DNA of 64,000 bases from an uncultured Gammaproteobacteria bacterium (GCA_963759005.1 CAVWXQ010000014.1:23655-87654); one strand, 5' to 3'. Positions 1 to 64,000 are shown, counted from the first letter of the stretch. Translations and numbers: made by a program. Notes: generated from the sequence alone by a model not told the origin.

Positions 1-373
1 TCCTCAGCACACGTGCCAGGCTGATCTCGTCGAAGGCAGGGTGTTTGCGCCCGTTCTCGTGAACATGACCGTAGACCTTGGTCAGTTCGCTCCAGCGGAT
101 ATCCGGCGGCTGCACGCCACCCTCGGGGCGGCCCAGGCCATCGGGGCCGTGGCAACTCGCACAGGGCACAGCGCTGGCCGGCAACGATACCCCTTCCGTG
201 CCTACGATGGCGGTGATTTGCCCATCAGTAGAACTGGTACCCTGCAGGTAGATTTGTTTGCCCCGGCTCTGTGCCGCGTCCGGAGCTGCCGAAACCAGGT
301 CCGGACCAAGAACCATCGTTAGTCCGACCACGGCAAGTGCGAGTCGTTGGCGGATGCCGTATGCTGAGCTCAT
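1..373 (-). CDS. c-type cytochrome, partial (3' end runs off window start)
   Basis: Minus-strand ORF with ATG at 371-373. Translation MSSAYGIRQRLALAVVGLTMV... looks like a signal peptide and carries the heme motif CASCH. Not in the ORF track because it is open at the window edge. Confidence 0.6.
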   Translation of the reverse strand, partial: MSSAYGIRQRLALAVVGLTMVLGPDLVSAAPDAAQSRGKQIYLQGTSSTDGQITAIVGTEGVSLPASAVPCASCHGPDGLGRPEGGVQPPDIRWSELTKVYGHVHENGRKHPAFDEISLARVLR

Positions 374-1006
374 TCTGGACTTTCTTCCGCCAGGTCGCGC
401 ATCTTGTTCGCGATATCCGGCGGCGTAAGCATCGGCATCACACGGGTCCAGTGTTTGGTGATCGTGTTGCCAGCCAGCATCAGCGTGGTGTGCGATTCGA
501 TATCGGGCGTGTACTGGCCCAGCCGCTTGATCAGGAACTCGATGTTGTCTTTCTCACCCGTCAGGAAAATCCAGCGGCTCTCGTCCACGCTCTGCTTTTT
601 GGCGAACGCTTTCATCGCTTCCGGGGTGTCGCGCTCCGGGTCGACGCTGAGCGTCACGTACCAGACTTCATCCTTGATCGACGGCACCATCGCTGCGCGC
701 GCCTGCTTGAGCTTCTGTGCCTGCATCGGGCAGGCGAATTCGCAGTTGGTGAAGATGAAACTGATCAACACCACGCGGCCCTTCAACACGTCGCTGTAGA
801 AACGCTGTTTTTTGCCGTTCTGGTCGATCACCTCGGTGTCGGTGAAATAGTTGCGTGCCTTTTCCTCTGCTGCCGCGTCACTGGACGGTATTTGACACAG
901 CTGCAGCACTGGACAGGGGAACACTATCCTTAGACAGGACAGCTTGCGGAAGCAGTGCCAGGCCAAGACACAGCACTACTATTAGATTACTCAACTTTTT
1001 CATCAT
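370..1006 (-). CDS. SCO1/SenC family copper chaperone, probable frameshift near N-terminus
   Basis: Thioredoxin-like Sco motif FTNCEFACP in the 370..966 ORF. An ATG-ATG at 1006/1003 sits right after the upstream gene stop and encodes the signal/anchor MMKKLSNLIVVLCLGLALLP, but in another frame that ends in a stop. Confidence 0.65.
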
Positions 1007-1699
1007 TTAACCTCCTGCTGCAACGTTGCGTGCAGCCTGTAATGCATTGACCTGCTCCACCAGCCGGTCCGGACTCGGAAAACCGAAGAAACGTGACCAT
1101 TCGCCGGTCTGACCATCGCCGACCAGCACCATGGCCGGGTGGTTCTCGAAATTTGGTGTATAGGCGCCGAGGCCGTCGAGCACCTTGTCCATCGTCCGCT
1201 TGCCGCCGGTCAGCCAGATCCAGCCCGGTTCGGCCTTGTGGATAGCCGCGTAGGCCTTGAGCCGCTGCGGTGTGTCGCGCACGGGGTCGACGCTGACCGA
1301 AACCAGCACGACCTCGTCACCGAGCTGGTCGCCGAGCTTGTTCTGCACCTGGCCGAACACGGCCGAGATCACCGGACACACCGTGGTGCAACTCGTGTAA
1401 ATGAAATCCATGACCACGATGCGGTCGCCGATCACGTCGCTGACGAATTTCATTTCGTCGCCGTGCTGGTCCATCAGCACCAGGTCCAGCAGTTCCACCT
1501 CGGTAGTCTTGGCCGGTTCGGCCGGCTTGTTCATCATCGCCTTGTGGTGGGCGTGGGGATCGTCGTCGCCGCTCGCTGCGTGATCATGATGCTCGTGATG
1601 TTCGTGCCCGCTGTCTTCTGCTTGGACGTTCAGCGCAAGCGTACCCGCGGCAATAAACAACACCGCTAATATCATATAATTCTTACATTTATAAAACAT
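1007..1699 (-). CDS. SCO1/SenC family protein with His-rich N-terminal region
   Basis: Motif YTSCTTVCP (CxxxC). His-rich stretch HEHHEHHDHA...HAHH. Signal peptide present. Confidence 0.8.
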   Translation of the reverse strand: MFYKCKNYMILAVLFIAAGTLALNVQAEDSGHEHHEHHDHAASGDDDPHAHHKAMMNKPAEPAKTTEVELLDLVLMDQHGDEMKFVSDVIGDRIVVMDFIYTSCTTVCPVISAVFGQVQNKLGDQLGDEVVLVSVSVDPVRDTPQRLKAYAAIHKAEPGWIWLTGGKRTMDKVLDGLGAYTPNFENHPAMVLVGDGQTGEWSRFFGFPSPDRLVEQVNALQAARNVAAGG

Positions 1700-1725
1700 T
1701 TTTAATCTCCACTCTCAATTCTCAA

Positions 1726-1812
1726 GCCCCCTCTCCGCCTGGGCGAGGGTCAGGGTGAGGAAAAAATATTACCCCCTCATCCTGTCCTTCTCCCCAGGGG
1801 AGAAGGGACCTT
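1726..1812. repeat. REP-like multi-hairpin intergenic element, copy 1
   Basis: Stems ccctc/gaggg, gagggtcagggtgagg/cctcatcctgtccttc and ccttctcc/ggagaagg. ORF-track translations such as PSPLPKGEG come from the repeat, not from a gene. Confidence 0.5.
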
Positions 1813-1888
1813 CTTTCTGGCTGTCTCGCGTGCTCGCGGGTGCTTCGCAAACGCTCCAACCCAACGCACGCTCCTGCTTCCAGCGCGC

Positions 1889-1975
1889 CCCCTCTCCTTT
1901 GGGGAGAGGGCTGGGGTGAGGGGAAAAATTCCCTACCCTCGTCCGGCTCTTCTCCCAACGGAGAAGAGATCTTCT
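1889..1975. repeat. REP-like multi-hairpin intergenic element, copy 2
   Basis: ccctctcc-N5-ggagaggg and ctcttctcc-N5-gagaagag hairpins. About 65% similar to copy 1. Confidence 0.5.
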
Positions 1976-2011
1976 GCCGAACAGCACGCAGACGCACACC
2001 GCAGCGTAATT

Positions 2012-3013: not shown

Positions 3014-5068
3014 TCAGGAACCACCCTCTGCCGCAGCCTGTGGCGCGGTTTTGCCGCCCTGGGACGGCGTGCCCATCAGGCTGAAGAACGGTATGTCGTT
3101 ATACATCATCTTCTCCGACTGCGAGCCCACGAACACGTAATACGTTACCATGCGTTCGATTTTCACATCGGCCTCGTAGACGCCACCACCGAGCGATTTC
3201 GCCGGCACGACCGTGCGTCCGCGACCGTCTGAGCCGTAGTACAGCACCGTGACATCGGGAATATCATGCCGCGGCAGCGTGGTGCGTGGATCGGTCAGCT
3301 TGAACTTGACCTTGGTGCTCTCGCCCACCGGTATACGCCGATCGGTGTTCAGGTATTCGATGTCCATCGGCGCCGTGGTGACCTCGATGTCGGGATTGGG
3401 TTCCACCTTCGCGCTGAAGCAGTGCAGGAAGCGCGGTGTGTCCATCATGAAGGCGACGTCGTAGGTGCCCTCGATCGGGATCTTGACCCGCCCGACATAG
3501 ACGCCGGGCTCCTGTTCGCCGAGGCTGCGGTCGACGATCTCGATCGCGCGGGCCTCGTGGCCGTAGTTGCGGAACGCGCCCATGGGCGCGGCCATGCCCT
3601 CCATGTAATAATGAACCGTGCCCTCGGCCTGGTTCACGATGTAGGCCGCGGCCTGCTTGACCGAAGGCACGATGCTGTCGGCGATGCTGATGTCCGCGGC
3701 CGTGCCGGGCGGGCGCTGGCCGGCCGGGACGTAGGTGATCGGCGGGACGCTGTCCTCGTCGAGCTCGGACACCGGTATCAGGCCGACGTCCTGCGTGCCC
3801 AGCGAGCGCACATAGCCGTAGCCGCGCGTGAAGTTGACCTGGTACGGCTGCTTGCCGACGGTGATCGAGTGGGCGAGCTGGTCCTTGGAGGCGTCGATCG
3901 CGAACACCAGGTTCTCGATCGGGTTGACCACGAGCCCCCAGCGACCGTCCTGCGAGAAGCGCATCGGGCCCAGGCCCGGCTTCGCCTCGATGCGGGCGCG
4001 AATCTCGTGCTTGTCGGCATCGATCACGCTGATGATGCCGGTCTTGCCGTCGGCCACGTAGACCGCGTCGCCCAGCGGCGAGTACGCAATCGAGATCGGT
4101 ATCGGCCCGGTTTCGAGGTCCTTGACCTTCTTCAGGGACTGCACGTCGATCACCGAAACCGTTCCCGTGTCGCGGTTGGTCACGAACGCGTAACTGTCAT
4201 CTTCGTTGAACGTGATCTCGTGGTGCCCCGTGCCGGTCGCAATGAACGCGACCTTTTTGAGGCTCTCGGTATCGATCACGGTCACCCCGCTGTCGGCGGC
4301 TTCGTTCGAATTGTTGCCGACCCAGAGGTAGCGCTCGTCCCCCTGCAGCACGGCCCGCGTCGGGTTGTAGCCGGCCTCGATATTGTTCACGACCTTGAAC
4401 GTCTCGGTATCGACCAGCGCGACCATGTCGGCGGTCGGCATGGACACGAACAGGCGCTTCTGGTCTTCGGTCTTGGCCCAGTCCGCGCCGGGCCGGTCGA
4501 GGCTGATCTGGGCGAACAGGTTGGTGATGCCGGTAATGCCGACGGCAGGGTCGATCACCGAGATCGAATCATCGCGGTTCAAGACCAGCAGGAAGTGGCT
4601 GTTCAGGTCGATCATCGGGCGCACGCCGACGATGCCCTGCAGATAGGTCGAAACCCGGTCCTCGCAGCTCATCGGTCTTTCACCCTTGGCTTCCCAGGCC
4701 AGGGCCAGGTCCATCCAGGCGGCCGGGTAGCGTCCCTTGATCGGTTCGCCGGTGTTGGCATCGGTGATGCGGAAGCTCACGTCGGCCCAGTCGGCCGCAA
4801 TCACCTTGTCGGCCGTTGCATCCGTCGGACGCGTTGAGAACTCGACCACAACACCCTCGCGGCTGATGCGGTTAAGCTCGTCTTGTACAGCGGCGGCTTC
4901 GGAGCCAGCGTCTGCGCTTTGCGGCACGCTGGCGGTAGCAGCAGCGTTATCAGCGGCCGCGATGGTTTCGGCGCCGGCAGGGGTGCTCGGCGAGCAGCCC
5001 TGCAATGCGGTGGACATCAGCAGGGCAAGTGTTGCCCCCTTTAGTAAGGTATTCAGTGAAAATTGCAC
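3014..5068 (-). CDS. YVTN-family beta-propeller repeat lipoprotein
   Basis: Lipobox LQGC. Repeated roughly 40-aa units ending ...VTNRDTGTVSVID / ...YVADGKTGIISVID. Confidence 0.7.
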   Translation of the reverse strand: MQFSLNTLLKGATLALLMSTALQGCSPSTPAGAETIAAADNAAATASVPQSADAGSEAAAVQDELNRISREGVVVEFSTRPTDATADKVIAADWADVSFRITDANTGEPIKGRYPAAWMDLALAWEAKGERPMSCEDRVSTYLQGIVGVRPMIDLNSHFLLVLNRDDSISVIDPAVGITGITNLFAQISLDRPGADWAKTEDQKRLFVSMPTADMVALVDTETFKVVNNIEAGYNPTRAVLQGDERYLWVGNNSNEAADSGVTVIDTESLKKVAFIATGTGHHEITFNEDDSYAFVTNRDTGTVSVIDVQSLKKVKDLETGPIPISIAYSPLGDAVYVADGKTGIISVIDADKHEIRARIEAKPGLGPMRFSQDGRWGLVVNPIENLVFAIDASKDQLAHSITVGKQPYQVNFTRGYGYVRSLGTQDVGLIPVSELDEDSVPPITYVPAGQRPPGTAADISIADSIVPSVKQAAAYIVNQAEGTVHYYMEGMAAPMGAFRNYGHEARAIEIVDRSLGEQEPGVYVGRVKIPIEGTYDVAFMMDTPRFLHCFSAKVEPNPDIEVTTAPMDIEYLNTDRRIPVGESTKVKFKLTDPRTTLPRHDIPDVTVLYYGSDGRGRTVVPAKSLGGGVYEADVKIERMVTYYVFVGSQSEKMMYNDIPFFSLMGTPSQGGKTAPQAAAEGGS

Positions 5069-5570: not shown

Positions 5571-8500
5571 TTATTGTGCGGCCCGTCCGTTGGGCCGCAG
5601 ATGGAATGCTACTACGGCGTCGCTGGACTCCACCCTCAGGATACCGAACTGGCCGTTGCGGTTACCGTTGGGCTGTAGTCGCGGAACAGGTAGTCACCCT
5701 CAACCGCACCGCTACCACCGGCATTGAACAGGATCGGCCAGTGACCGTAGGCGTGGCCCATGCCTTCCTCGCCGCCCATGTACTTGGCCGATCGGGTTCA
5801 GACCGAGCGCGATGGAATCGACCGTGCCATGAGTCCAGACACAGGCCTGTCAGACCGAGGTCGTTCTCGACCCGGGCAGACGAACGGATCGCGCTGCCAC
5901 ACGTGGCCGTGCAGGATGAAGGTACCGTCACGGTCAGCCGAGGCGCCGTTGAGCACGTGGATGCGGCTGGCCTGCTCCGGCAGTCGCCCGGAACACCGGT
6001 GTTGCCGGATCACCCGCTGCGCTCACGCCCGGGATCGCCGGGACTGCGTTGGGCTCGCCGATGGTCAGCAGGTTGGCGTACATCGCCTGCGCGTTCGGGA
6101 TGCGCCGAAGCTGTTGGGCGTACCGGCGTTGCCGAAGGGCACATCCGGCGGCAGTTTGAAGCGGAACCAGCTCGGCTCCATGCCGTAGTTGAAGCCGGCG
6201 AAGCCGCTGTCCTCGGCGCCTTCACGGCCCAGCTCACCCTGGTGGATGTTGGCGATCGCGGTGCCGTCCTTCCAGCGGATATTGGCGATCTTGTGACCGA
6301 TCGCAGGTTCTCGCGGAAGTCACCGCCGGAACCGGCTCCACCGACAGGCGCGGTCACCGTGACCTGGGCGCGGGTCAGGCGTGTCCAGCCGGATTCAGCG
6401 TGCCGTCTGCATTGACCGCCATCTGGCCATCAGGCACCTGGGTGTCCTCTGCCACGGTTGAACCGGGCGGCAGGATCGACAGCGCACCGAACAGACCCTT
6501 CTGCGGCTGCTTGACGCGGTCCGCCGACAGCAGGTTGCTGGCGCCGAACTCGATCGGGGTAGCCACCAGCTCGAGCAGCTCGGTGTTGCCCTGCTGACCG
6601 ACCGTGTTGTAGGTCAGGTCGCCCGCGTACCAGCGGTAGGTCCTGGAACTCGCCGGGCGCGACGATCTGCTGGCCCGGCGCGTTCTGGCCGACCAGGACA
6701 CCGTCGTCACGGCTGGCGTCGTACTCGACCAGCTGGGCGTGCAGACCGACGTGGCTCGACGGCCGGATCAGGTTGTTGTTGAAGAAGTGCATCTCCGGCA
6801 ATGCCGGTGACCGGATCAACCTGGATCCTGCGCTTGACGATCCACATCATGTCCTGCCAGCCGGCCAGGTCGGGCGCGACCGCCGGGATGCGGTTGCGCA
6901 GCGTGGTCTCGATGCAGTCGCCCGCGTTGGCGCGCAGCGCGATCGGCTCGACCGGAGCAGTATCGCTCAGACGAACCGGACAGGTTGGTGCAGCCAATGG
7001 GTCAGCTAACGGCAGGCCCGTTACCGGATCCAGACAACCGGGGTCGGCCGGATCTATAACGACCAGATCACTGGTGCGGACGTACATCATCGCGGTCGGA
7101 TCGTTCAGCGGACCGTCGCCGCCCTGCAGCGTGACCGGCGGCTCGCCGCCTTCACCCGGCAGGGTCAGCGTCGGTACCGTGGTACCACGACGGTTGTAGA
7201 CCAGCGTGCCGCCGGCGGTATTCAGCGGACCACCGTTGTTGTCGCGATACCGTCACCGTTGGAGTCGCCACCCACGTTGGCCGGGATGGTCACACCGAGG
7301 TTGTTCGGCAGCACGTCGTTGGCCAGTACCGCGGTCACGTCATAAGCCGACCACGTTCGGCGGTCATCCGGGCAGACGCCGTTGAACTCGTTGGCGTTGA
7401 CCACGCGGCGGTTGCCGGCCGGGTTGCTCGGCAGCTCGACGAGGTCCTGTTGACGGTTGCCGTAGGCGCGCAGGATACCCCAGGGGCCGGTCCAGAAACC
7501 GTCGCGGGTGGCGTCGGTCGCGTACAGGTAGTCGACCGGTTGCCGACCTGATTCCGGATCCGGGTTGATCGGGATCTGCAGGCTGAACTGCTCGGAGATA
7601 CCGTGCGACTGGAAGTTACGCCAGCCGGAGTTCGGCGAGCGGCCGAAGCCGGAGCCGTTGGACAGCCACTTCATGCCGTGCACGGTCGCCTGGTGCTGCT
7701 CCTCGGTGGCGCCGACCTGGATCTTGATCTTGACGTCGTCACCCTCGTAGGCACGCATGATCGGCGTGATCGGGTCACCGCGCCGGCGGTCGCAGTTGAT
7801 GCCGTCGCCGGTGTTGCCCTGGCAGTACGTCGCCGGGGTCCGGTAGCCGGGCGGCATGTCGCCGAAGCTGGTGTTCAGCTGCGGGATCGCGCGGTCGCTG
7901 CGGCTCTGCAGCGCGAACGCGAGGTCGCCGGCTTCACCGGCCGCCTGGGTACCGTTCTGGCCGTCAGGACCGGCCGCGTTCGGATCGAACACGCGCAGGC
8001 CCACCGGCTCGTTGCGGTAGTTGACCACGAACATCGAGCTGTGGCTGATGTTGATGGCCTCGGCGCAGGGACGCGGCACGTTCGGATCGGCATTGCCGGC
8101 CGGTCCCGGGCAGACGCCCTCGGCCGTGACCATGTCCGGGAACGGCACCGACTTCAGCTTCAGCGGCGGATTGATCGCCTGCTGCCAGGTGTCCTGCATC
8201 GTCGGGCGCGAAGGCCGTGGTGACGTCGAACGCGAACGGGCTGATCGATGTGCGTCTGGACCGGACGACCATCCGCGATCGGCACCGACGTAGACACCGG
8301 CCTCGTAGGCGTGCTGGAAGTCGCTCATCTCGAAGTAGAACTCGCGATGATCCGGGATGTTCTCCGAGCCCGTGGTGCTACCCAGTGGCGCCTGGCAGGC
8401 GTCATGATGATCGCCTGCCAGGTGGTCGGGCCACCGTCGTGCACGCGGAGCCGGTCTGCCGTCGACCAGCGCGCCGATCTGCGCGCCGCTCTCGTTGTGC

Positions 8501-11500
8501 ACCCAGGTCGAACCGGCCGGCTCGGCCAGGATGGTCGAGTACAGGCCGATCTGCTGGAAGGTCGACGGACCGTAGTGGTCGTGCGAGAAGGTCAGGCCGA
8601 GGCCGCGGTCCACACCGGCCACGTTGACCAGCGGGTCCATCAGGATGCGCTGGATGTGGTGCGCGCGCCGCAGTATTCACCATAGGGCTCGACGTCACAG
8701 TGCCGCCGACACCGGTCACCGAAGAACGGATGCGGCTTGCGGCGTGCAGCTCGGTCACGCCAGCGCACGACGCTGCTGCCCGGGTCACCGGTGTCGATGG
8801 TCGGCACCGGGGCCAGATCGGTCAGGTCAACCGTGGTGGTTGGCCACCGCAGCGACCAGGTCGGGCGGCAGGTCGTCGGCCTTGCCGAGCGCGACCAGCA
8901 GGTCAACCAGGTTGGGCGCTTGACCGGCCAACGCGTTGAAGTGGTTGATCGCGTTGATGCGCTCCTCCACCATGCCCGGCGCCAGCGTGCCGTCCTCGTA
9001 GTTCCAGCCGTTGGCCGCACCGTCGTTGGTGGTCAGGTCCCACTTCGGCAGGTGGATGTGCTGACCGATGATGTCGGTCGGCGTGCGCACCTGGAAGTCG
9101 TCCAGCTCGAACTCCTTCGGCACCAGGTTGGTGTGCAGGATCTTGCCGCAGTCGAAGGTGTTGAAGCGCATCACCAGCGGCTCCGGCGGACGCTGCTTGG
9201 CGATGGTCGGCGCCACGTCGTCCCACAGCGCGATGATGCGCTCCTGCGGGTAGTGCTAGCCGACCTTGTTGAACACCGCGTCGATCTGCACGTTGGCGAC
9301 CTTGTAGGTGCGCGGGTTCTCGCAGGTCCAAGTCCGAGCGCGCCCATGTTGCCGCAGCGTACCCTGGTCGTTGTCACCATCGAACCAGTGGCCGATGACA
9401 CCAGCGATCAGCGGGGTGCCCGCGTCGTCGATGCAGGGATCCTGGAAGGGACCGCCCGGTACCGGCAGGGCACCGTTGAGCACGAAGCCGCCGCTGCCGT
9501 CGGGGTTGGCCACGCCGGTTGTCGCGTCACACAGAGCCTCCGAAACGGTGCCGTCACGGTTCTGCTTGTAGGTGTCGCGGCAGCGCACGGCGTGGTAGGC
9601 CATGCGACCTGCTCCAGTCGTCGGTGCCGATCTCGGGGAAGTACACCGGCTGGGCGACCTCGACTTCCTTGGCGAAGTCGAGGCGGCTGTTGGTGTCCAG
9701 CGAGAGGCCGCCGGAGGAGTAGCCGAGCAGGTTGTGGCGCGGCAGGCCGCCGTCCCAGCCGCCGGCCTGCGCCGGTGCGATATCCGTTCGCTGTCGCGCC
9801 GGCCTCGGTCAGCATGTCCAGCGGCGGGGTCGGCATGCGCTGGCCAACCGTGCCCTTCGGGCAGCGGAGTCGTCTGCATGTCGCGTCATCACGCCGCACT
9901 CGTTGCCGGCCAGCCAGAACGGGAAGCCGGGGCTGACGTCGTCGGCGGTACCGAGGTCAGCGTCGGGACCGGCCACGGCGTGCGATAGTCGATCACGGCC
10001 TGGCTCGGACGTTCGGGGATGCCATCCGGGCCTGTCCTGCCGCCCAGCACGCCGAAGTTACCGCGGTCGACCGCGACGACCTTGACCGGGGCAGGCATAC
10101 GGCATGGCCTTGCCGGGCAGCGGCACGATGGCCGGAATCGGCCAGCCGTCGGGCAGCTCGGCGTCGGGCAGCGCGCGGGCGCCGGCCGCCGGCTTACCGC
10201 TGCGCAGCGCCCAACGCGTGTCATGGAAGCCGTCACCGTCGGGTCGGCGTTGCCCGCCATCTGCATCACGGCGCTGTCGAGACGGCCAGCAGGCTGCCGG
10301 TTTCGAACGTGTCCTGGATGCGGATGTGGTACCACATGCCCTGCGCAAAGTGCGGGTAGAAGTGGCAGTGGAAGATCGCGTCGCCCGCGGTCTTGTTGCG
10401 GTTGCCGACGCCGCCGTTGTTTATCTCGTAGGTGTGGCCCGAGCCCGGCATGATTTCCTGGGCGTCCAGGTAGTTGGCGTTGTCGTCGTTCGGGTTGAAC
10501 AGCCACTGGTGGTTGTGCAGGTGGAAGATGTGCTGCTCGAACGCACCGACGTGGATGTTGCGGATCTTGACGAAGTCACCGGTGTAGGAGTGGTGCACGT
10601 TGGACGGGTCTTCCTGGTACAGCGCGTAGTTGCCCGGGATCGGCGGGTTGGCACCGATCGGCGATCACCGCCATTGGACCGGGACGTCGATCGTCGAACT
10701 GACGCCAGCAGGCCGGACGTCAGGATGTCGGTCGGGTCGCACTGCTCGATGCCGGTGTTGGCCGGGAAGTTGACCAGCATGGCCGGGTCGCCGACGGTCT
10801 GCGAGGCGAGGAAGAACTCCTCGTAGGCGCAGTCGGTGCAGTCGTGCATCGGGCCGGTGTGCAGGCGGTTGGCGATGATTTCGGAACCGATGCCGCCGGA
10901 GCCGTAGTTGATCATGAACTGGTCCTTGACGCCGGCCAGGGTGTAGTTCAGCACCGGGTTGCCGTACCAGCGCGGGAACACCTGCGAGTTGGTCTGCTCG
11001 TCGTGGAAGATCGAGGTGAACTCGCGGAACGGCTCGAGCCGGTTCGGCAGGCTCGGCACGTTGTTGCCGACGCTCTCCAGCGGGTAGGTGCTGGCCGGGA
11101 ACGTGTACCGTCGGCATTCGGGCCGGCGATGATCGCGTTGATGTCGCTGTGCACCAGCTCGTTGCCGGCTGTCAGCATGTTCAGGATCGGCAGGCCGGCC
11201 TTGCCCTCGGAGATCCAGGGCTCGACGTTCGGGTAGGTCGCCTCGTAGTCGATGATCGGCTGGCCGAGGCCGGAGTCGTGTCGGTGGTGGCCAGGCGCAT
11301 TTCTTCCTCGGTCACCATGCTGCGGTACATGCGCGCACCGACGGGCTGGACGTTCAGCTCGCCGAACATGCCGATGCCGAGGTTGCCGCTGTTCTGCTCG
11401 CTGCCGAGGGTGGCGCCGTAGCTGTTGATCACGAAGGCGCCTTCGTGCGGGGTGTACAGGTTGTAGGTCCTGGCTCTCGTTCGGTGCTGCCATGCCGAGG

Positions 11501-12401: not shown

Positions 12402-13121
12402 CTACTCACTTACCGAGGTGGTGCTGAACAAATAGCCAAGCCAGGGTATATCCATCAACAGCGGGATACCCGCCCTGCCCTCGTTGCGAGTTTCGAGGAT
12501 CAGGCCACCGAGCACCACAGTCGCACCGCTCTGCACCACGACACTGCTGCTGATGCTGCGCTGTGAAATCGCCACATTGCCGCCGCCGCCGACAGCCGGC
12601 TCTGAACCGGGAAGGCTGACTTCCTGGCTGATTTCCATGGTGACCTGGCCGCCGGCGTTGATGCGCGGAGTGACGGACAACAAGGTGCCGGTGTCACGAA
12701 ACTGCACCTCAGAGACCACCGGGGCATCCGGGTTTGTGGTACTCTGGGAACTGCGCACGGTGACCGGTATCTGGTCACCCACGCGGATATTCGCGGTATG
12801 GTTGTCCAGCACCATGATCTGCGGCGCCGAGAGGAATTTGACATCGGTCTTACTGGCCAGCAGGTCAATAAACATCCTGGCATCATTGCTGCTCGAAAAC
12901 GTGGCCAGTGTCAGGCCATCACCACCAGCAGCGGTGGGCACCGGTGCGTTGAAGCCCAGACTGGTGTTGCCGCCGGAGAGGAACCAGCGCACGCCGTAAT
13001 CCAGCGCATTGGAAAGGGTCACCTCGGCGATGGTGGCCTCGATCAGCACCTGGCGAGGCTGCTCATCGAGCTGTTTAATGACGGCTTCGATGCCACGGTA
13101 ATCCCTGGGACTGGCCAGCAA
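12402..13121 (-). pseudogene. secretin (GspD/PilQ family) C-terminal domain fragment
   Basis: VLIEATIAEV, SAPQIMVLDNHTANIRVGDQIPV and IPLLMDIPWLGYLF match secretin C-domain motifs. Frame closed by tag/tga immediately upstream, so the N-terminal two-thirds are absent. Confidence 0.75.
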
Positions 13122-13127
13122 TCGTCA

Positions 13128-13476
13128 CTACCTGAAAACGACCAGCGAAGCGCTGGCCGCCGCCAGCCTGCAAGGTATCGTCAAGAAAATCGCGGCATCG
13201 ACAGGCATGGAAGTGCTAAGCACCCAGATCCTGCCTGCAGGCGAGCAAGAGGGTTTCAAGCGTGTCACCCTGAAGGTTCGTATGCGCGGCGTGCTGGAAA
13301 ACACAGTAAAGGCATTCCACGCCATGGAGACCGGCCAGCCGTATCTGTTTCTGGACAATGTCTCAATCCGCGGCCTTGCCCGGCGTACAGGCAACTATGG
13401 CAAAGGCAAAGTCAACTATGATCAAATGCTGAATGTGGATTTTGATCTCATCGGCTACATGCAGCAGCAATCATGA
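13128..13476 (+). pseudogene. PilO/GspM-like C-terminal fragment
   Basis: Open frame ...LQGIVKKIAASTGMEVLSTQILPAGEQEGFKRVTLKVRMRG...YLFLDNVSIRG with no N-terminal TM part. Abuts the inverted secretin fragment. Confidence 0.35.
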
Positions 13477-13530
13477 AAATGTTCTCTGATAGGAAATTAC
13501 CTCACTCCCTACCTGCTAACCACCTGCGCG

Positions 13531-13947
13531 TTGTCGGCTGGTGTACTGGCAATCGAGAGCGGTAACCTGATCGAGACACAAGGCCATGCCTCGCCCGAAA
13601 CACAGCCTGCTGTCGATCCGATTGAGCAGGCAAAATTCACTGCATCAGGGATTGCCGCATTCAGCGAAATCACCGAACGACCGTTGTTCAGGGAAGGTCG
13701 TGAGCCACCGAGCGAACCCACAGCCACACCCGTGGCAGCCAGGCCGTCACCACTACGCCTGAAGCTGGAAGGCGTGGCCATTACACCTGGATCAAAAATT
13801 GCCATACTGCGCGATCTCAGCAACAACAAGATGCTGCATCTCGAAACTGGCATGAAACACCAGGGCTGGGAACTCACCTCTGTTACCGACACCGTCGCCA
13901 CATTCAAGCTTGGCGAACAGAGCCAGGAACTGACGCTAAAAAAATAG
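13531..13947 (+). CDS. PilP / GspC-HR-like pilus/secretion assembly protein
   Basis: ITERPLF motif followed by a beta-rich C-terminus ...LEGVAITPGSKIAILRD...LTSVTDTVATFKL. Confidence 0.4.
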   Translation: MSAGVLAIESGNLIETQGHASPETQPAVDPIEQAKFTASGIAAFSEITERPLFREGREPPSEPTATPVAARPSPLRLKLEGVAITPGSKIAILRDLSNNKMLHLETGMKHQGWELTSVTDTVATFKLGEQSQELTLKK

Positions 13948-14263: not shown

Positions 14264-14289
14264 CTAGCACAATCGAAGCAATGCGCCAG

Positions 14290-21830: not shown

Positions 21831-21902
21831 CTACACACTAACCATTACCAACACCTTGTTATTCTGTGGATTGAATAACTACATTGAGGAATCTCTAATT
21901 AA

Positions 21903-29382: not shown

Positions 29383-30130
29383 GTGTGTAGTTATATGACT
29401 AATGTAAGTTTTCAACAATACAAAGTATGGGATGTAGCAACCAGATTATTTCACTGGATTAATTTCATAACCATTATTTGCCTTATTTTTATGGGTTTAA
29501 TTATGTTGTTCAAGAAAGAACTCGGCATAACCAGCATTGAAGCTAAAGTGGGTTTAAAAGAAGTTCATGTCATTATAGGTTATGTCTTTGTATTAAATTT
29601 TGCCTGGCGAATCATCTGGGGTTTCATCGGAAACAAATATGCACGCTGGACTAACATTGTTCCGGGCAAAGGTTTTATTAGTCTTGTTCGTAATTACATT
29701 CGATTCTGTAAAAAGCGGCGACCCCGAACAATACATCGGCCACAACCCGCTGGGACGTCTGGCAATATTATTCATTCTTTTACTTATGTTTACCTCAGCC
29801 GTAACCGGTCTGGTGCGCGCCGGCACTGATATTTATTACCCGCCTTTCGGTTCGTTTGTTGCTGACTATATTGCGGAGCCCGGTATAGACCCGGACAGCA
29901 TAAAACCTTATATTGCGGAAGGCACGAATAAAGATAAGGCTGCCAGCTTAAAAGCGTTTAAAGATCCTTTTGGTCAAATCCACATCTATTGTGCATACGT
30001 ACTTATGTTTATGATCGTCCTGCACATTTTCGTTGTGGTGCGCACCGAGGTACGAGAAGGTGGCAGTTTGATCACCGCCATGTTTACTGGCAACAAAATA
30101 TTGGCAAAGAAACCGATTGATATAGATTGA
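29383..30130 (+). CDS. cytochrome b561 / Ni-Fe hydrogenase b-type cytochrome family, frameshifted near 29670
   Basis: RLFHWINFITIICLIFMGL (frame A). GHNPLGRLAILF and HIFVVVRTEV (frame B). The two ORFs 29383..29829 and 29600..30130 overlap. Confidence 0.6.
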
Positions 30131-33993: not shown

Positions 33994-34380
33994 TTGTACT
34001 ACAGATGTGAACAACAAATCAAGATATATTATGAATATAGCAGTACCTTAATGATACATCGTGATGTTTTGGAGTTAACGAGTCAGCAGATCAGTTCCTT
34101 TCGCAATTGGCGTAAGCAAAACTATGGAAACATGGTGGACGTTATGAATACTCTTATCGAAAAGCGTGTCGAATTTAAAAAAGCTTCGCTAAATCCCGAT
34201 ACATCGGAAGAAGAATTGATTAAGACGCAAGATGATATTCTGAATTTGCACAAAAAACTTCTTGAGATAAAGTTAACCTGCCGTAAGATGTTAGTTGACA
34301 GTTTCACAGAGGCACAGTGGGATAATTTTGCATTTGCGGTTGCTGATCATCCCAAGCTTGGGAGTTTAATTCAGCGATAG
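33994..34380 (+). CDS. Spy/CpxP-family LTXXQ periplasmic protein, N-terminally truncated paralog (possible pseudogene)
   Basis: About 85% nucleotide identity to 39178-39501 from HRDVLELTSQQ onward. Lacks the signal-peptide portion present in the 38992 copy. Confidence 0.5.
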   Translation: MYYRCEQQIKIYYEYSSTLMIHRDVLELTSQQISSFRNWRKQNYGNMVDVMNTLIEKRVEFKKASLNPDTSEEELIKTQDDILNLHKKLLEIKLTCRKMLVDSFTEAQWDNFAFAVADHPKLGSLIQR

Positions 34381-37356: not shown

Positions 37357-37540
37357 CTATCCATAAGGGGGTGCGGCATAGTCAGGTAACCTTTCGTATA
37401 TTTCTTCACTATAAACCGTCACTTCTTCAGGTGCGTCTATACCTATCCTGGCATGGTTGCCTTGAATGTCCAGTTAGAGTAATTTCAATATCACCGTCTA
37501 AAATAATTGTTTCGCCAATTTTTTTAGTCAGCAACAACAT
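37357..37540 (-). pseudogene. csrA: csrA (carbon storage regulator) with +1 frameshift at about 37476
   Basis: RBS aggagg, then MLLLTKKIGETIILDGDIEITL. The rest (LDIQGNHARIGIDAPEEVTVYSEEIYERL) is in the +1 frame. One extra base in ctaACTgg. Confidence 0.7.
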
Positions 37541-38026: not shown

Positions 38027-38122
38027 TATTGGAAGTTCACGATACAATAAAAATGACCTTGGAGTAGCTATTTTTCTGGTGATATAAATTAGAAACCTGT
38101 GGTCAAATAACCGTTGCTATTA

Positions 38123-46527: not shown

Positions 46528-48260
46528 TTAGTGACTATGTGCGCTAGCTGCCCCTGCTGGTACACGTATATCTTCAACCATATGTTGAATGTGATCAGGT
46601 GGTGCTGGTGTCATCTTCGAAACAACATAGGCCACACTGAAGTTTACAACCGCGCCCACTGCACCAAACGCATTTGGCTCAATGCCCATAAACCAGTTTG
46701 GTTTCATGTCACCTAAGAAGGCGGTACCGGGAACAAACATAATACCTTTGTGTTGGAACACATAAAGTAGCGTGACAGAAATACCAGCAATCATACCTGC
46801 AATGGCGCCTTCCTTGTTCATATTCTTACTGAAAATACCCATCATCAGTACAGGGAAGATGGAAGATGCAGCAAGTCCGAATGCCAGTGCCACCGTTCCC
46901 GCAGCAAAGTCAGGCGGATTAAATCCCAGGTAACCAGCTAAGCCGATAGCACCTGCCATCGCTAACCGACTGGCGAACAACTCCTGCTTCTCGTTAATAT
47001 CCGGTCTAAACACCCCTTTCAATAAATCATGTGAAATGGATGAGGCTATCGCCAGCAACAAACCTGCGGCGGTAGATAGCGCAGCAGCAAGACCACCTGC
47101 AGCAACCAGGGCAATTACCCAGTTAGGTAAACCAGCTATCTCAGGATTTGCCAGCACCATGATATCTCTATCAACTTTCACCATTTCGTTAGTGACTGGG
47201 TCTGCAGAATAATTCAACCAGACCATCGCCATTTTTGTCTTCAAATTTCAACAGACCTGTTTTCTCCCAGTTTTTAAACCAGCTTGGACGGTCGTCATAA
47301 ACAAGATTTACACCAGGCTCGTGGCTGAATGGTTTCGTGTAAGTTTAAACGAGCCATCGCAGCTACAGCAGGTGCTGTTGTATAAAGAATAGTGATAAAG
47401 ATTAGTGCCCAACCAGCAGACACACGCGCATCACTCACTTTTGTCACTGTGAAGAAACGGATGATTACGTGGGGCAGACCCGCAGTACCAATCATTAGAG
47501 ACAAAGTATAAACAAAGGTGTTTAAGGTACCCAGTCTCGTAAGCGTCGTGTACTCAGCAAAACCGAGTTCCGTCACCACCTGATCCAGTCGATCCAGCAG
47601 ATAGGTTTCTGTACCCGCCATCATACTACCCAAACCTAACTGTGGAATTGGATTACCGGTCAGGTTCAGCGAGATAAAAATTGCAGGAATGGTATAAGCA
47701 AAAATAAGAACACAGTATTGTGCAATCTGGGTATAGGTAATACCTTTCATGCCGCCTACAACCGCGTAGATAAATACGATGCCCATACCAATTGACAATC
47801 CTAATTCATAACTCACTTCCAGGAATCGGGAGAATGCCACGCCGATACCTTTCATCTGACCGATTACATAGGTCACCGATGCAACAATCAAACAGATTAC
47901 TGCAACAATACGTGCAGTTTTTGAGTAATAACGATCGCCAATAAACTCTGGCACGGTGAACTTTCCGTACTTGCGCAGGTAAGGGGCAAGCAACATCGCC
48001 AACAACACGTAGCCACCCGTCCAACCCATAAGAAAGACAGAACCGCCGTAACCAAAGAACGCAATCAAACCCGCCATCGAAATAAACGATGCTGCTGACA
48101 TCCAGTCGGCGGCGGTCGCCATGCCGTTAGCAATCGGATGAATACCACCGCCAGCGATATAGAATTCACTGGTTGTTCCAGCACGCGCCCAGAAAGCGAT
48201 GCCGATATAGATCGAAAATGTTATACCTACGACAATAAATGTTAATGTTTGTAGTTCCAT
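46528..48260 (-). pseudogene. actP: actP-type cation/acetate symporter (SSF family), at least 2 frameshifts near 47240-47340
   Basis: The N-terminal 321 aa and C-terminal 238 aa are each SSF-like (...GLPHVIIRFFTV...). The linker HEPGVNLVYDDRPSWFKNWEKTGLLKFEDKNGDGL is readable only in a third frame. Confidence 0.8.
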
Positions 48261-48269
48261 GACGCCCCC

Positions 48270-55467: not shown

Positions 55468-56904
55468 TTAAAGGAAAGCACCTGTATTATCGATAGCGTT
55501 TAGTTGCAAACCATCTGGACCAGTTTCACCTGTATCAGGTATCCATGGTGCAAGACATTGACGGTCTTTAACACAAGGATCGGTTAACGATTTTAAGAAC
55601 TCAACCAGATCGATCACATCATCATCGGTATAGGTAACATTTTGATGAACCCCTGCAACATTGTTAGCACGATTAGCTTCAAGCTGGTCCAGCGCAAACT
55701 GAGTATTTGTTTGCATATTTGAAAACTGTATATTTGCATTTGAATCTAATTGTGAATAATCGTAATTAGCAATAGCCTGTGCCGGATTCAACATGTGACG
55801 AACCATGTTCTCCAATGTGGTGTAAGCACCGGCATGTCCCCATGGGCCGGTAACTTCCACATTAAGTAATGTCGGTGTTCTGAAACGGTACATATCAGCC
55901 GCAACTTTACTTTCTCTGAAACGACCAAAATCATCATTGATCAATGTGCCATTATCATCACCTTTACCACGACCAATCTGGGGCGATGCCAGTACATGAT
56001 ATTGTTCATCGGTAAAGAAATCACCAGCGTGGCATGAGCTACAGTTCGCACCACCATCTTCAACTTTGCCAAAAAACATCATCGCACCACGTTTCGCAGA
56101 TTCACTAATCGCTGTAGCATTACCTTCTACATATGCTTTCCACGGAGAGTTTACAAAAACCTGTGAACGCTCATATTCGCCGATTGCTTCTGCAATGAGT
56201 GTATAAGTGATGGTAGTGGGTACACCAAAGGCAGTCTCGAATTCGGCAAGCCAATCAATATCTCCGGCCAATTTCAAAGCCAGTGCATCACGAATTTTAT
56301 CGTTAGTATTTTGAGCTGGCAGACTAAAACCATGCATTTCTTCAGGTGAGGTTACCGGAAATCGGGATTGCGCTGCCGCAAGCGTATCAGTTGCCGCATT
56401 CGGATCGGCAACATCAAAGGCTGAATCCGGTGTACGAATACCTATCCCATCATCACCATTTGCGCCCTCTGTTTTACCCAGGCTTTCCACCCTGCCATCA
56501 TGAAACAGCGCCTGATCCCACATTGCAATGTTAAACGTAGTCGGTGCATTTCTTGGCACGGTTGGACCACCATCAAATTCACCACCCACCGCATTAATAT
56601 CATGGAAACGTCCTGGACCTAGCAGGTCAGGATTTTCCGCACCAACACCAATCGATAATGATAATCCATCACCACCGCCTAATGATGGATGATGACAGGT
56701 CACGCATGCAGAGTCATCATCGCCACCCAGACCTTTAGTGAAAAACAGTTTCTTACCCAGCTGTGCTTTTGCGTCTGTAATAGCAGGAAGAACTCTGCCT
56801 GTGGCTGGATCGCCGGTTAATCCATATTCCGTTACCATCTGTAACAACTCAGCATTACTAACAGTAGCCTCAGGATTACTATTATCACATGCCGCCAGTA
56901 ACAA
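55468..56904 (-). CDS. MbnH/MauG-like di-heme cytochrome c peroxidase family enzyme (paralog 1), probable N-terminal frameshift
   Basis: CVTCHHP and CSSCHAG heme sites. FRTPTLLNVEVTGPWGHAG. Tail LKSLTDPCVKDRQC. The signal peptide MDRRHLLTLSIRIKL lies in another frame, followed by LLLAAC in this frame. Confidence 0.75.
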   Translation of the reverse strand: MLLAACDNSNPEATVSNAELLQMVTEYGLTGDPATGRVLPAITDAKAQLGKKLFFTKGLGGDDDSACVTCHHPSLGGGDGLSLSIGVGAENPDLLGPGRFHDINAVGGEFDGGPTVPRNAPTTFNIAMWDQALFHDGRVESLGKTEGANGDDGIGIRTPDSAFDVADPNAATDTLAAAQSRFPVTSPEEMHGFSLPAQNTNDKIRDALALKLAGDIDWLAEFETAFGVPTTITYTLIAEAIGEYERSQVFVNSPWKAYVEGNATAISESAKRGAMMFFGKVEDGGANCSSCHAGDFFTDEQYHVLASPQIGRGKGDDNGTLINDDFGRFRESKVAADMYRFRTPTLLNVEVTGPWGHAGAYTTLENMVRHMLNPAQAIANYDYSQLDSNANIQFSNMQTNTQFALDQLEANRANNVAGVHQNVTYTDDDVIDLVEFLKSLTDPCVKDRQCLAPWIPDTGETGPDGLQLNAIDNTGAFL

Positions 56905-57104
56905 ACAGCTTGATGCGGATGGACAACGTTAATAAATGACGCCTGTCCATTTTTCTCTTTTTACTTTTTTGCAACACACATATCTCCTTAACAACTATTA
57001 TTTTTAAAGTTCAACGAGGTAGCATGCAACAAGCGCGCCAGCCGTTCAAACTATAAAATTAAAATACTTACATGCATGCAAAGATTTATTTATGCGTGGT
57101 ATCA

Positions 57105-57135: not shown

Positions 57136-57557
57136 TTGAATAAAAGACTTACATAACCGCACTAGTCTGTGTAATGCATATAATGGTTAACGCTTTTATA
57201 CTTGAACAACAACGGAAAGATAATTTGTTTGTTCATTGCTCCTTCTCCCCCGTTTTCTTCGTTGCCAGGTTCAGCATCATCAGCACTGGAAGCAGGATTA
57301 TTTTTGCGGCAAGCAGCAAGCTGCTAACCTCAAGCAATAAAAAAAGTCGGAACAACTTTTATAACTGGTGAATTGAACCGGTAATATTCTGTAATACTTT
57401 AGAAACTCCAGGTCATTGGGGTCAGTAATAAGTCTGTGTTTCAGTTTCCAGTTGCGATAAGTCTACAGCATCAAACCAGGTGTCATAATTTATTGCCAAA
57501 CTTACCGAACCCGTCGGGGTACTCGCCGATATCATCATTAACGCAGATAATAATAAA

Positions 57558-58181
57558 TTACGATTGTATTAATGTTGCACCCGTATCAATCAGAATCCTA
57601 CCGCCGCCACCGGCGCCTGCACCCAGTGTATAGCTACCTTCGATATAAACCGTTTTACCAATCATATCTGGCTCACCTGAACCTACAACAGGCAAATTAA
57701 TAGCATCGGCATCGGCAGCAAACAAATCAATATCAACCCCGCAGTAATCTGCTGCTGCAGGTGACATGCTGCCAATTGAAACAGGAACATTATCCGTTGC
57801 CAGCAAGTTGATAACGTAAGGCACACCGGTTGAGGTAGGTGTTGTTGTGGTGTGCGCATGCGCCTGTGGAAGAATAACATCCAGTAGCCCATCCAGTGCT
57901 GCAGAAAATGAAGCACCACATGTGGTTTCAATAGTTGTACTTGAAATAACCAGATAGGCTTTGGTCAGGGTAATAGAATGCCCCTCTGCAGTGACAAACA
58001 TTTTAGACCCAGCAGCCATAACTGCTGAATTTGCTGGCGAAGGCGCAGCACTCATGCTGACAGCTGTGGCGGTTGTAGCGCCATCAGAACTACTGCTTGA
58101 ACTGCAGGCTGATAAAACAACAGCAAGCAGGCTTATTGCCAGAATGTTAATGGCCGAAATATTAGTGGACCTGAAAATCAT
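57558..58181 (-). CDS. hypothetical lipoprotein
   Basis: Lipobox LSAC. Ser/Thr/Ala-rich. Last gene of the four-gene minus-strand operon. Confidence 0.3.
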   Translation of the reverse strand: MIFRSTNISAINILAISLLAVVLSACSSSSSSDGATTATAVSMSAAPSPANSAVMAAGSKMFVTAEGHSITLTKAYLVISSTTIETTCGASFSAALDGLLDVILPQAHAHTTTTPTSTGVPYVINLLATDNVPVSIGSMSPAAADYCGVDIDLFAADADAINLPVVGSGEPDMIGKTVYIEGSYTLGAGAGGGGRILIDTGATLIQS

Positions 58182-61458: not shown

Positions 61459-61489
61459 ACACAGCTTGTAGAATTCTTTTACAGAATTT
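61459..61489. promoter_or_regulatory. conserved upstream motif, copy 2
   Basis: See 57105-57135. Lies 123 nt upstream of the MbnP-like start. Confidence 0.4.
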
Positions 61490-61686
61490 AATAAGTTTGG
61501 TGATGTGATCGGGCAATGCTTGCTGATTCTTAGTACGATGATAAATTAAAGAGACAGGTCGACATGTGACTGAGGCAGGAGATAGGTCAGATATTCGTGA
61601 ACTGATTTTTTAGGTCACAAATTGAATACCATTAACCTTTATGTATAATAAATATAAATGGTAACGGGACAAAGGAGACTAAGGAT

Positions 61687-62719
61687 ATGAAACTACTATC
61701 CAGGCTATTTGACTTCACAGACGTGAAGAGCAGCAATACTGAATCACCTGCTAAAACAGACATTCCAGCCAATGTACTCAACGAGGCCATAGAGCGTGTA
61801 GTAGACGGCACTGATCCCAACATACGGTATTTTCCCGGTTATAAAAAAATTCTTAACAATAGCGTTGCCACTTCTTTGGCTTATATCAGCAATCTGGTCG
61901 ACACCATTCCCGGTCCGATTTTTATCAGCAGCAAAACCTTTAATACCGACCCACAGCTTAAAGCCTATTTTGCTAGCCATGGCAGATATTCAGAATATTT
62001 TTAGTGGCAGCACGGAACTGAGAGACTTCTTTGAAGTACCAGAAAACTGCAATCTGCGCGAAGCCTGTGCACTACTATGTATGAACGAGACAGAAAAACC
62101 CGTGCAGGGAATGGAGCTGCATGGAAATATTATTCAGCGTGATGTCTTGCAAACTACACTGCATTTTTCTGGACATAAGATTTTGTCACCGGCCTCAAGT
62201 GAGACCGAAGTACGCAAAGGCATTAAACAATGTATTTTTGATGCCTTGATCACCCACGTACTGCAACAAATTGTTGAACTTAAACAACAGAAACAGGGAT
62301 TGGAAGTTCAGCGCAGTATACTGAATTCAAGACTGAAAACAAGACAGTCACAGCCTGGTGGTCTAAGCAGCCTGCTGGCCAGTGCAACTGAAGCAAAACG
62401 ATCAGTAAATATTGAACAGCAAATTGCAGAAAATGAAAAAAAGCTCGAAAAACTACCAGCCAGCTGGAATGCTCCACGGTTTTATCTGGAAATTATCAAA
62501 CACACCTTTACCCACCCTGAGAACTTTATACATATCAAAGCGAAGTCTTTCAATATAACTAAAACGGGAATAGTGACCAGTGATGACTCCTCACAGTCAG
62601 TGAACAACATCCATTTTCATGAAGTTTTAATTGCTAATGTGCTAGAACGGGTCATCGCCATTGTGCGTTATCCCCGTAGCGAAATGCTGCCCAGGAAGGC
62701 GTTTAACCTGAAACAGTAA
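61687..62719 (+). CDS. hypothetical protein, frameshifted at about 61985
   Basis: ORFs 61687..62004 and 61865..62719 overlap in different frames (...ASHGRYSEYF* versus MADIQNIFSG...). RBS aggagac before the ATG at 61687. Confidence 0.3.
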
Positions 62720-62895
62720 AAACATAATTACATCATAAAACGAGAACCACTTACCCTGGTCATTAAATATAGGCGTCTATTATTGACCTTTTTTACCTGT
62801 CAGCCACAATCGTGAACGTCTGTTTGAGGGGTTCTAAGTTGAGTTTTACCTGTAGCGCCATATCAGGCATGAACTCAATAACCCATGCCAGCCCT

Positions 62896-63933
62896 TTAGA
62901 AGGTATATTGCGCGCCCAAAGTAAATACAAGATCGGTTTCCAGTTGCGGGCCGTCTAGCTTCTGATAAGCAGGCACGCCTGCTTCGGCAGCAAGCCGCAG
63001 GCTGGTAAATCCGGGTGGAACAAAGTTGATACCTATAAGCGCATCAACACGTGTACCTCCACGGAGGTTCGGGTCGGCAGTCGGTACCATAGCTGGCGCC
63101 AACATCAGCTTGTTATCGCTGCCGTCAATGTTATCCCAATCCAGTGCTTTCAATCGAAAAGAAAAGCTGGTTGATTTTGCCACCTGTTTTGCTGCCCACA
63201 CTGTCGCATTTAACCTGTTGCCTAATGTGTAACCATTATCATTTGTACCTGTTCTAAAGGTATACAGTCCTTGTGCACCCCATGACCAGTTTTCATAGGT
63301 CTGCACGTACGTCAGACCGGGTGTGACGTCCCAGGTACCTGAGCCCAGTTGCATTGGGTAAGGCAAGTGCACATCATCTGGACCCGTAGTGTTATCTCTT
63401 TCGTCAATCGATCCGGTCGGTACATTAACCGCAAAGTTAAACAGGAAATCAGATCCTGGTTTAGCGAACAGTCCATAGGTCGCAGCCAGTTTTACATCAC
63501 CGATACCATCGGACTCAGTGGTAAAATTTGAACCATTCATATTCACAAGATGATCCATCGAAATGGAAGTATATGGAACCATCGCCATCAACGTAAGTTT
63601 ATCTGATGGCGCAAACATGACGCCAATCATGTGCATATCCATGTCCATCGATAACGGGCTAACCATATAACCAGGTAGAGGCACACTAACACTGTCGGTG
63701 TCCGTTCGGTTACCATCCATCTCCATAGACATGAAGCGGTAACTCAGCATGAGTTCACCTTTTCGCATCAGGTGATCGCCCATGACGCCGATCGGTGCAT
63801 GACTATCTGGCCTGGTATGGTCATGACCAGAGTGATCTGCATGGCTCTCATGCCCGGCAGCCTGAGCGGATTGTATCGATAATAGAGACAGCGCAGTCAG
63901 TAATATCGGCGTGTGTTTTTGAGATGAGCTCAT
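62896..63933 (-). CDS. outer-membrane beta-barrel (transporter / MetA-pathway-like family) with His-rich N-terminus
   Basis: Signal peptide. AGHESHADHSGHDHTRPDSHAP plus Met-rich MDMDMHM. C-terminal ...GAQYTF. Confidence 0.45.
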   Translation of the reverse strand: MSSSQKHTPILLTALSLLSIQSAQAAGHESHADHSGHDHTRPDSHAPIGVMGDHLMRKGELMLSYRFMSMEMDGNRTDTDSVSVPLPGYMVSPLSMDMDMHMIGVMFAPSDKLTLMAMVPYTSISMDHLVNMNGSNFTTESDGIGDVKLAATYGLFAKPGSDFLFNFAVNVPTGSIDERDNTTGPDDVHLPYPMQLGSGTWDVTPGLTYVQTYENWSWGAQGLYTFRTGTNDNGYTLGNRLNATVWAAKQVAKSTSFSFRLKALDWDNIDGSDNKLMLAPAMVPTADPNLRGGTRVDALIGINFVPPGFTSLRLAAEAGVPAYQKLDGPQLETDLVFTLGAQYTF

Positions 63934-64000
63934 AGTATTGTCTTTATATTGTTAATTTATGTGATGACTTTTAGTTTGAAAATCATTCCTGGTAAAAATT

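Follow-up and report, generated by a model that had tools for sequence, protein, structure and literature searches.

Clustered single-base frameshifts in a 64-kb stretch of an uncultured gammaproteobacterial genome and their probable origin as consensus indel errors

A stretch of 64,000 nt from an assembled contig of an uncultured Gammaproteobacteria bacterium (GCA_963759005.1, CAVWXQ010000014.1:23655-87654; the whole stretch is referred to here as the window) carries ∼40 single-base slips of the reading frame in nine genes, out of ∼43 genes in total, and most of them fall within one giant gene for a manganese-oxidase-like multicopper oxidase. Based on the places and kinds of the slips, on the intactness of the same genes in close relatives and on the lack of substitutional decay, most or all of these frame switches are likely (a probability of roughly 0.8) to be consensus indel errors of the assembly and not mutations of the organism; read in this way, the feature is not a biological one. 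A preliminary description of the window had listed at least eight otherwise conserved genes with frame switches, and had offered early reductive decay and long-read indel error as equally simple explanations. The excess of frameshifts is real and was understated. Checks against homologs upheld seven of the eight genes, while the last, a Spy-like paralog, proved to be truncated at its 5′ end, and a ninth gene, which encodes a lipoprotein and contains three switches, had been missed. Error is the better supported of the two explanations; their supposed equality did not stand, since the evidence separates them.

The window consists of two compositional blocks, block A (1 to ∼13.4 kb; 59–68% GC) and block B (13.5–64 kb; ∼43% GC), and slips occur in both, as had been stated, with ∼20% of the genes hit. 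The slips were located with a purpose-written protein-to-DNA aligner that allows frameshift moves, run with homologs of each gene. For six of the broken genes (Sco paralog 2, cytochrome b561, csrA, actP, the lipoprotein gene and a conserved hypothetical gene near 61.7 kb), single-ORF comparators came from independent assemblies, either as relatives at 87–98% nucleotide identity or through shared 90% protein clusters. A self-trained codon-usage frame plot of the low-GC block was noisy and was used as a pointer only.

Frame switches in the giant multicopper oxidase gene

The most heavily affected gene (12043→5628, minus strand) spans ∼2,130 codons at 67% GC. It had been recognized as broken, yet the damage was greatly underestimated: ∼30 frame switches were found, and a plot of GC content at third codon positions (GC3) changes phase many times along its length. 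References were obtained by tblastn and frameshift-aware alignment to proteins P0001–P0030, to orf2 of locus L037 and to alphaproteobacterial homologs that are single open reading frames (ORFs). In the first ∼2.7 kb, six independent single-ORF references agreed on ∼11–12 switches, and alignment to the L037 protein (73% amino-acid identity) indicated ∼24 further switches. Six of these further switches are hidden within a seemingly intact ORF (7225–8676), in which GC-rich sequence read out of frame has no stops. Because references of low identity yield too many frameshift calls, also when the assembly is a better one, the total of ∼30 could be wrong by a few. Net +1 and net −1 events are about equally frequent in this gene. 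A 524-residue composite joined from seven of its frame pieces matched homologs at 76% identity across 100% of its length, and the reconstruction is therefore considered sound.

The copper-site motifs HLHNHQW and HCHFYPH were found in the giant gene, and some sources name homologs of its product 'manganese oxidase'; Pfam coverage of the family is almost nil. The sole in-frame stop (9256..9258, minus strand; FNKVG*HYPQ) replaces a tyrosine that is present in all references; no other disruption of the substitution type was seen in the window. A blastn search of a plasmid collection returned only distant alphaproteobacterial homologs, which are useful for synteny and too distant for counting slips.

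The same gene is split into 2–4 called ORFs in three other assemblies (L037, 10001–16101; L038, 9490–12768; L108, 947–7329), so that it is often mis-assembled or mis-called in other public assemblies too. Slip sites common to these relatives and the window were considered and rejected: five of nine events in the relatives lie within ∼11 residues of an event in the window (roughly P = 0.07, by our own estimate), and this nearness was attributed to the events being placed in variable linkers.

Frame switches in other genes and their intact relatives

Among the remaining genes, the sodium:solute symporter gene actP (46528..48269, minus strand) provides the clearest comparison. It is spread over three frames in the window, as compared with a single ORF in 20 of 20 orthologous loci, and the Pfam SSF domain is matched at positions 1–252 and 289–406 in two ORFs. 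Two relatives (L098 and L099) encode a 576-residue ActP and share 95.3% nucleotide identity with the window over 10.3 kb. Coding DNA in this span is free of indels except for the two bases that actP of the window has in excess. The exact sites, 109 nt apart, were taken from L098 (47321, CCA[C]GAG; 47212, GAA[T]TAT), in agreement with the two switches claimed earlier.

The lipoprotein gene (57362..58181, minus strand) contains three switches within 165 nt, +1 at ∼57566, +1 at ∼57427 and −1 at ∼57404; its relative in the same 90% cluster (P0319) is a single ORF of 269 residues that matches at 90% identity across the full length once the frame is corrected. Single ORFs from the same clusters were also available for two genes with one event each. 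The cytochrome b561 gene (29395..30130, plus strand) matches PF01292 positions 1–109 and 80–179 in two different frames, and its 244-residue relatives read NYIRSVKSGDP where the window has one inserted T (∼29706–29707, CGAT[T]CTG); alignment placed the +1 event at 29707 with 94–96% identity on either side. Both fragments of a conserved hypothetical gene (61687..62719, plus strand) cluster with 343-residue proteins (P0332 and P0334), which indicate that the window has gained a base at ∼61974 (GCT[A]GCCATGG), with the +1 event aligned at 61975–61978.

A csrA-like gene (37360..37540, minus strand) is matched by Escherichia coli CsrA in two frames (tblastn) and carries one inserted base at 37473 (CCA[G]TTA on the plus strand). 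The corresponding sequence in L109, a contig 95.5–98% identical to parts of block B and 98% identical at this gene, encodes an intact 60-residue CsrA with a PF02599 match. Sco paralog 2 (370..1006, minus strand) has one net +1 event between its signal peptide and its SCO domain, in a variable stretch (∼883–941). A three-frame view places the start of the signal peptide (MMKKLSNL...) 1 nt past the stop of the neighboring Sco1 gene and the body of the protein in another frame. Compared with two relatives in which the gene is a single ORF of 206 residues (L111 and L112), the window has a net gain of 16 nt (equivalent to +1 modulo 3) at 896–941, and frameshift-aware alignment placed the event at ∼883. 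For paralog 1 of an MbnH-like di-haem peroxidase (55468..56950, minus strand), a probable +1 slip lies within the lipoprotein signal peptide (∼56915–56945). In the three-frame view and the local DNA, deletion of one base restores the lipoprotein signal MDRRHLLTLSSASSCLLLAAC, which supports the N-terminal slip described earlier, although here the argument is drawn from signal-peptide logic and not from an ortholog.

The Spy-like paralog (34044..34380, plus strand) is a different case. It is a 5′-truncated duplicate that shares a direct repeat of 300 nt, at 83% identity, with 39165–39464, and it has no frame switch and no upstream homology in any of the frames.

Intact genes served as controls. 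The β-propeller gene beside the giant gene (3014..5068, minus strand; 684 residues, 64% GC) keeps a constant GC3 phase and shows zero frame events relative to a 93%-identical protein (P0292), and a hydrolase gene, which agrees with its relative at 323 of 342 residues (94%), likewise shows none. All genes in the 43–54.6 kb region other than actP are intact compared with their orthologs. The statement that genes of 3.2–3.5 kb are unbroken held as well: the pump of a resistance-nodulation-division (RND) operon matches its Pfam family at positions 1–1020 of 1021, and a sensor kinase can be aligned with its orthologs over the full length. The glycosyltransferase has an unbroken frame of 1119 codons, with Pfam matches confined to the N-terminal third and to residues 683–748, so that its intactness is read from the frame.

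The closest comparators in these tests are ∼95–98% identical to the window and do not represent the same strain. A scan of genome contigs found no conspecific genome; the nearest to block B were metagenome-assembled genomes (MAGs) of uncultured sediment Gammaproteobacteria (best amino-acid identity of 85%). A scan of metagenome contigs with a porin recovered one contig of 2.7 kb (94% amino-acid identity), which covers none of the slip sites.

Rates, constraint and competing explanations

Outside the giant gene, 11 events were counted in 43.5 kb of coding DNA (0.25 per kb), as compared with ∼32 events in 6.4 kb inside it (∼5 per kb), a ∼20-fold higher rate. The excess in the giant gene corresponds to a Poisson P of ∼1e-34, computed with the eight outside events known at that point, and at the giant-gene rate the chance of the 2-kb propeller gene remaining free of events is P = 3.5e-5. 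Events outside the giant gene are also clustered (two in 109 nt in actP and three in 165 nt in the lipoprotein gene; simulation P = 0.006), and 10 of the 11 are net +1 (binomial P = 0.012). All five events that could be placed exactly, namely those of actP (two), csrA, cytochrome b561 and the conserved hypothetical gene, are single-base insertions at runs of 0–1 identical bases, and none of the five lies in a homopolymer run of three or more. Homopolymer-length miscalls of the kind typical of Nanopore, 454 and Ion Torrent platforms were thus not found at the resolved sites. Non-homopolymer insertions fit generic low-coverage error, or error like that of continuous long reads (CLR), better than classic homopolymer error.

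Once the frames were corrected, the affected genes showed no sign of relaxed purifying selection in the form of excess non-synonymous change. Across 20 orthologs of ActP, 384 alignment columns are invariant, and the corrected protein departs from none of them, even in the 229 residues that follow the two slips. In the N-terminal part of the giant gene, none of 60 invariant columns and 2 of 97 columns conserved at 90% or more differ (70 homologs), and 2 of 170 invariant columns differ in the C-terminal part, for which functional homologs yielded 4–42 differences when left out one at a time. Overall, 4 of 327 conserved codons are changed in the giant gene, no more than in functional homologs. 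In mutation-accumulation studies of bacteria, substitutions outnumber indels by a ratio of roughly 10. Given ∼32 indels accumulated neutrally, 18 changes would be expected at these 327 codons at a ratio of 5 and 37 at a ratio of 10 (P(≤4) = 6e-5 at a ratio of 5), so that only a ratio of ∼1 is compatible with the giant gene, and a ratio near 1 fits what is seen in raw long reads. Stop codons are scarce as well. One in-frame stop was seen against ∼40 indels, where 4–8 would be expected for the giant gene alone at ratios of 5–10.

These measurements bear directly on genuine early reductive decay, in which host genes would be eroding and the foreign oxidase gene would have become a pseudogene earlier, within an island that had been acquired. 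In favor of decay, ∼20% of the genes are hit across both blocks, and the truncated secretin gene, the truncated Spy-like copy, remnants of PEP-CTERM sequences and elements resembling miniature inverted-repeat transposable elements (MITEs) lie nearby. A large share of frameshifted genes, in company with truncated genes and with elements that are mobile or repeated, is likewise found in early-reductive genomes such as those of leaf-nodule Burkholderia symbionts, Sodalis, Mycobacterium leprae and host-restricted Salmonella or Shigella. The lesions of those genomes, however, are indels of widely varying size with a bias to deletion, nonsense mutations and disruptions by insertion sequences (IS), together with raised non-synonymous change in the dead genes (PMC6054270, PMC2916853), whereas the window holds insertion-biased 1-nt events, a single stop and proteins with their constraint kept. 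Curated bacterial pseudogenes contain 396 deletions as opposed to 300 insertions, with power-law sizes and 131 of the 396 deletions being 1 nt long (PMC6054270), and a deletional bias is general in bacteria (PMC2817411); the insertion bias seen here runs the opposite way. The mixed lesion spectrum of decay (nonsense, varied deletions, IS, deletional bias) was not found in the window, where the stop of the giant gene is the only one in total. Decay would also have to account for ∼30 oxidase indels with no excess of amino-acid change at the conserved positions. Early decay should give single hits, and several hits per 110–170 nt in otherwise perfectly conserved genes therefore speak against it, as does the presence of the same genes as single ORFs in close relatives. 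We consider decay improbable as the cause of the frameshifts, contrary to the first suggestion of the preliminary description. The MITEs, the truncated secretin, the truncated Spy-like copy and the PEP-CTERM remnants cited there are real features of the sequence, but they show a variable, repeat-rich region and not reductive evolution.

Recoding, by programmed ribosomal frameshifting or transcriptional slippage, would leave the genes functional as written, and the downstream frames are indeed perfectly conserved, as if translated. Known cases (prfB, dnaX and transposases of the IS3 family) similarly join two conserved coding segments in different frames. They differ from the present genes, which lack a slippery heptamer and a stimulator, in which the directions are mixed (+1 and −1 shifts both occur in the oxidase gene) and of which a single one has up to ∼30 sites. 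No slippery motif is common to the five resolved sites, and there is no conserved recoding site because orthologs at 90–98% identity do not have the extra base. With no shared motif and with sites absent from orthologs, programmed recoding was rejected; its probability is close to nil.

Consensus error is favored because constraint is kept, stops are rare, relatives are intact, the spectrum outside the giant gene is of the +1 kind and events are clustered. Long-read (Nanopore or PacBio) consensus errors, the target of the IDEEL test and of proovframe, likewise split conserved ORFs by single-base indels at locally variable density, in genes that are intact in independent relatives and with no accompanying substitutions. 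Frameshifted gene calls are a recognized symptom of long-read assemblies, and bins of low coverage need extra polishing (PMC9262707; proovframe preprint, 10.1101/2021.08.23.457338). In the literature, the errors left in Nanopore sequence are mostly homopolymer indels (PMC9262707), whereas the five resolved insertions here lie outside runs of three or more, and the present case differs further in that the error density of one 6.4-kb gene exceeds that of the flanking sequence ∼20-fold. The nearest relatives of the window derive from metagenomes. Four of the relatives (L004, L021, L022 and L030) are MFD bins from a Nanopore-only MAG project that used a single round of Medaka (PMC12313526). Others belong to European Nucleotide Archive (ENA) assemblies ERZ250395xx–ERZ250396xx with Flye-style 'contig_' record names, which include L109 as well as L108 with its split giant gene. 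Together with the signature of frameshifted calls, the relatives from the Nanopore project and the split giant gene of L108 are circumstantial support for error.

The contig would thus resemble a long-read assembly with incomplete polishing, in which a background of ∼0.25 stray single-base indels per kb, nearly all extra bases, was left throughout, while the 6.4-kb giant gene at 67% GC would have stayed at a quality like that of raw reads (∼5 indels per kb). Candidate reasons for the density in the giant gene include a local coverage trough, failed polishing of a GC-rich stretch, or a patch taken from one or two reads. We infer both this technical cause and the class of platform from the pattern of the slips. 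When corrected for frame, the cluster of giant oxidase, propeller, SCO protein and cytochrome c is probably functional.

Several observations weigh against consensus error as the full account. The status of the slips as errors is deduced from sequence rather than observed in reads, and the resolved events are non-homopolymer insertions, as opposed to the homopolymer deletions typical of Nanopore. Genes with a single hit could in principle carry very recent, strain-specific mutations, which sequence alone does not separate from error. The indel-dense stretch coincides with the detectable limits of one gene, the first event lying 39 nt from the stop and the last ∼100 nt from the start, with clean neighbors on either side; a dead gene among live neighbors would predict the same. 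The lineage also shows real structural gene loss and variation. In two relatives (P0339 and P0340), MbnH-like paralog 1 is shorter by ∼140 residues at its N-terminus, where the first haem-binding CxxCH is lost, and the upstream leader is fused to residue ∼150. The strains concerned appear to have undergone a genuine deletion, which is in keeping with decay. Relative to the window at 34241–40181, L109 contains 2.76 kb (including a 529-residue β-helix gene) and 1.84 kb (two genes) that are absent from the window.

Some of these points would be accommodated by a mixed origin, in which the giant gene lies in a badly supported stretch, where coverage is low or where sequence of a high-GC organism may have been joined chimerically, close by, to that of the 43% GC host, and some of the isolated insertions are real, recent and strain-specific. 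The two rate classes, 20-fold apart, are consistent with it, as are the occurrence of block A relatives in 55–67% GC genomes and the absence of host MITE copies from block A. Constraint tests do not separate the events in cytochrome b561, csrA and the conserved hypothetical gene near 61.7 kb from very young mutations, and the surroundings of csrA are structurally variable among strains. On the other hand, the isolated events share an odd spectrum (nearly all +1, clustered, and with the five exactly placed ones being single-base insertions outside homopolymer runs of three or more) that natural mutation does not predict, and no inactivation by nonsense mutation, IS insertion or deletion was seen in the conserved block B genes that were examined. 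A mixed origin is accordingly judged unlikely, while being the least unlikely of the alternatives. Were all the slips real, this uncultured sediment gammaproteobacterium would hold a recently acquired high-GC manganese-oxidase-like cluster in which an indel-only mutational process had peppered the 6.4-kb oxidase gene, and the same insertion-prone process would be beginning to disable genes of the host; an error-prone polymerase, or defective repair, at work on GC-rich DNA of foreign origin would be a candidate. This scenario is given slightly less credence even than decay.

With consensus error as the preferred reading, the main value of the result is as a quality flag for this genome. Taken at face value, the frameshifts would lead to ∼20% of genes being annotated as pseudogenes and to the genome being misread as a case of reductive evolution, and the large manganese-oxidase-like enzyme, one Sco protein, cytochrome b561, actP and csrA would be counted as missing. 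Error and decay can be separated without reads by constraint at invariant columns once frames are corrected, by the ratio of indels to stops, by which way indels go, what sequence surrounds them and how closely they cluster, and by comparing the window with contigs that are nearly identical to it.

Composition and gene content of the window

Block A genes all lie on the minus strand and comprise a cytochrome c gene (cut at the start of the window), the two Sco genes, an isomerase gene, the β-propeller gene and the giant oxidase gene. The isomerase appears PpiC/SurA-like from its translation, as judged by eye with no family search run. This gene order matches that of alphaproteobacterial plasmid clusters (L035 and L036; giant protein, propeller, SCO and cytochrome c), in which the giant protein is multicopper-oxidase-like and 2,160–2,410 residues long. 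The closest relatives of block A were found in the genomes of 55–67% GC mentioned above (L037, L038, L108 and L111). Either acquisition of an island or a chimeric join could account for block A; among the relatives compared, none of the independent contigs spans the A/B junction. Ordinary gammaproteobacterial genes make up block B, based on Pfam matches. The proteins of the window were found together on one NCBI/ENA contig of 141,219 nt. Scans of the 64 kb for tRNA genes and against Rfam returned no match in either.

The transition between the blocks (12405–13944) is a zone of intermediate GC (53–59%). It contains the truncated secretin gene (12405–13124, minus strand), which retains the C-terminal 240 codons and lacks the N-terminal part, and an adjoining GspC-like ORF on the plus strand (within 12405–13944). 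Both were recognized by eye from translation, and Pfam gave no family for the GspC-like ORF. Four copies of a MITE-like element (14021–14266, 21900–22321, 33237–33408 and 40019–40223), in both orientations and 78–98% identical, all lie in the low-GC block, and one of them sits at the right edge of the transition.

A 63-nt repeat (34516–34578 and 37964–38026; 94% identical) brackets the region of block B that is variable relative to L109. The RND operon is of the heavy-metal type (24022–28627, minus strand). Its outer-membrane factor gene (27233–28627) overlaps the pump gene (24022–27258), a DUF3240 gene lies downstream, and no membrane-fusion-protein gene is visible between the outer-membrane factor and pump genes. 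In block A, the stretch that separates Sco1 from the isomerase gene (1720–2010, minus strand) has frames that translate as 'SPHPSPLPKGEGA...' and 'LTPALSPKERG...', which may resemble a repeat element widespread in Proteobacteria.

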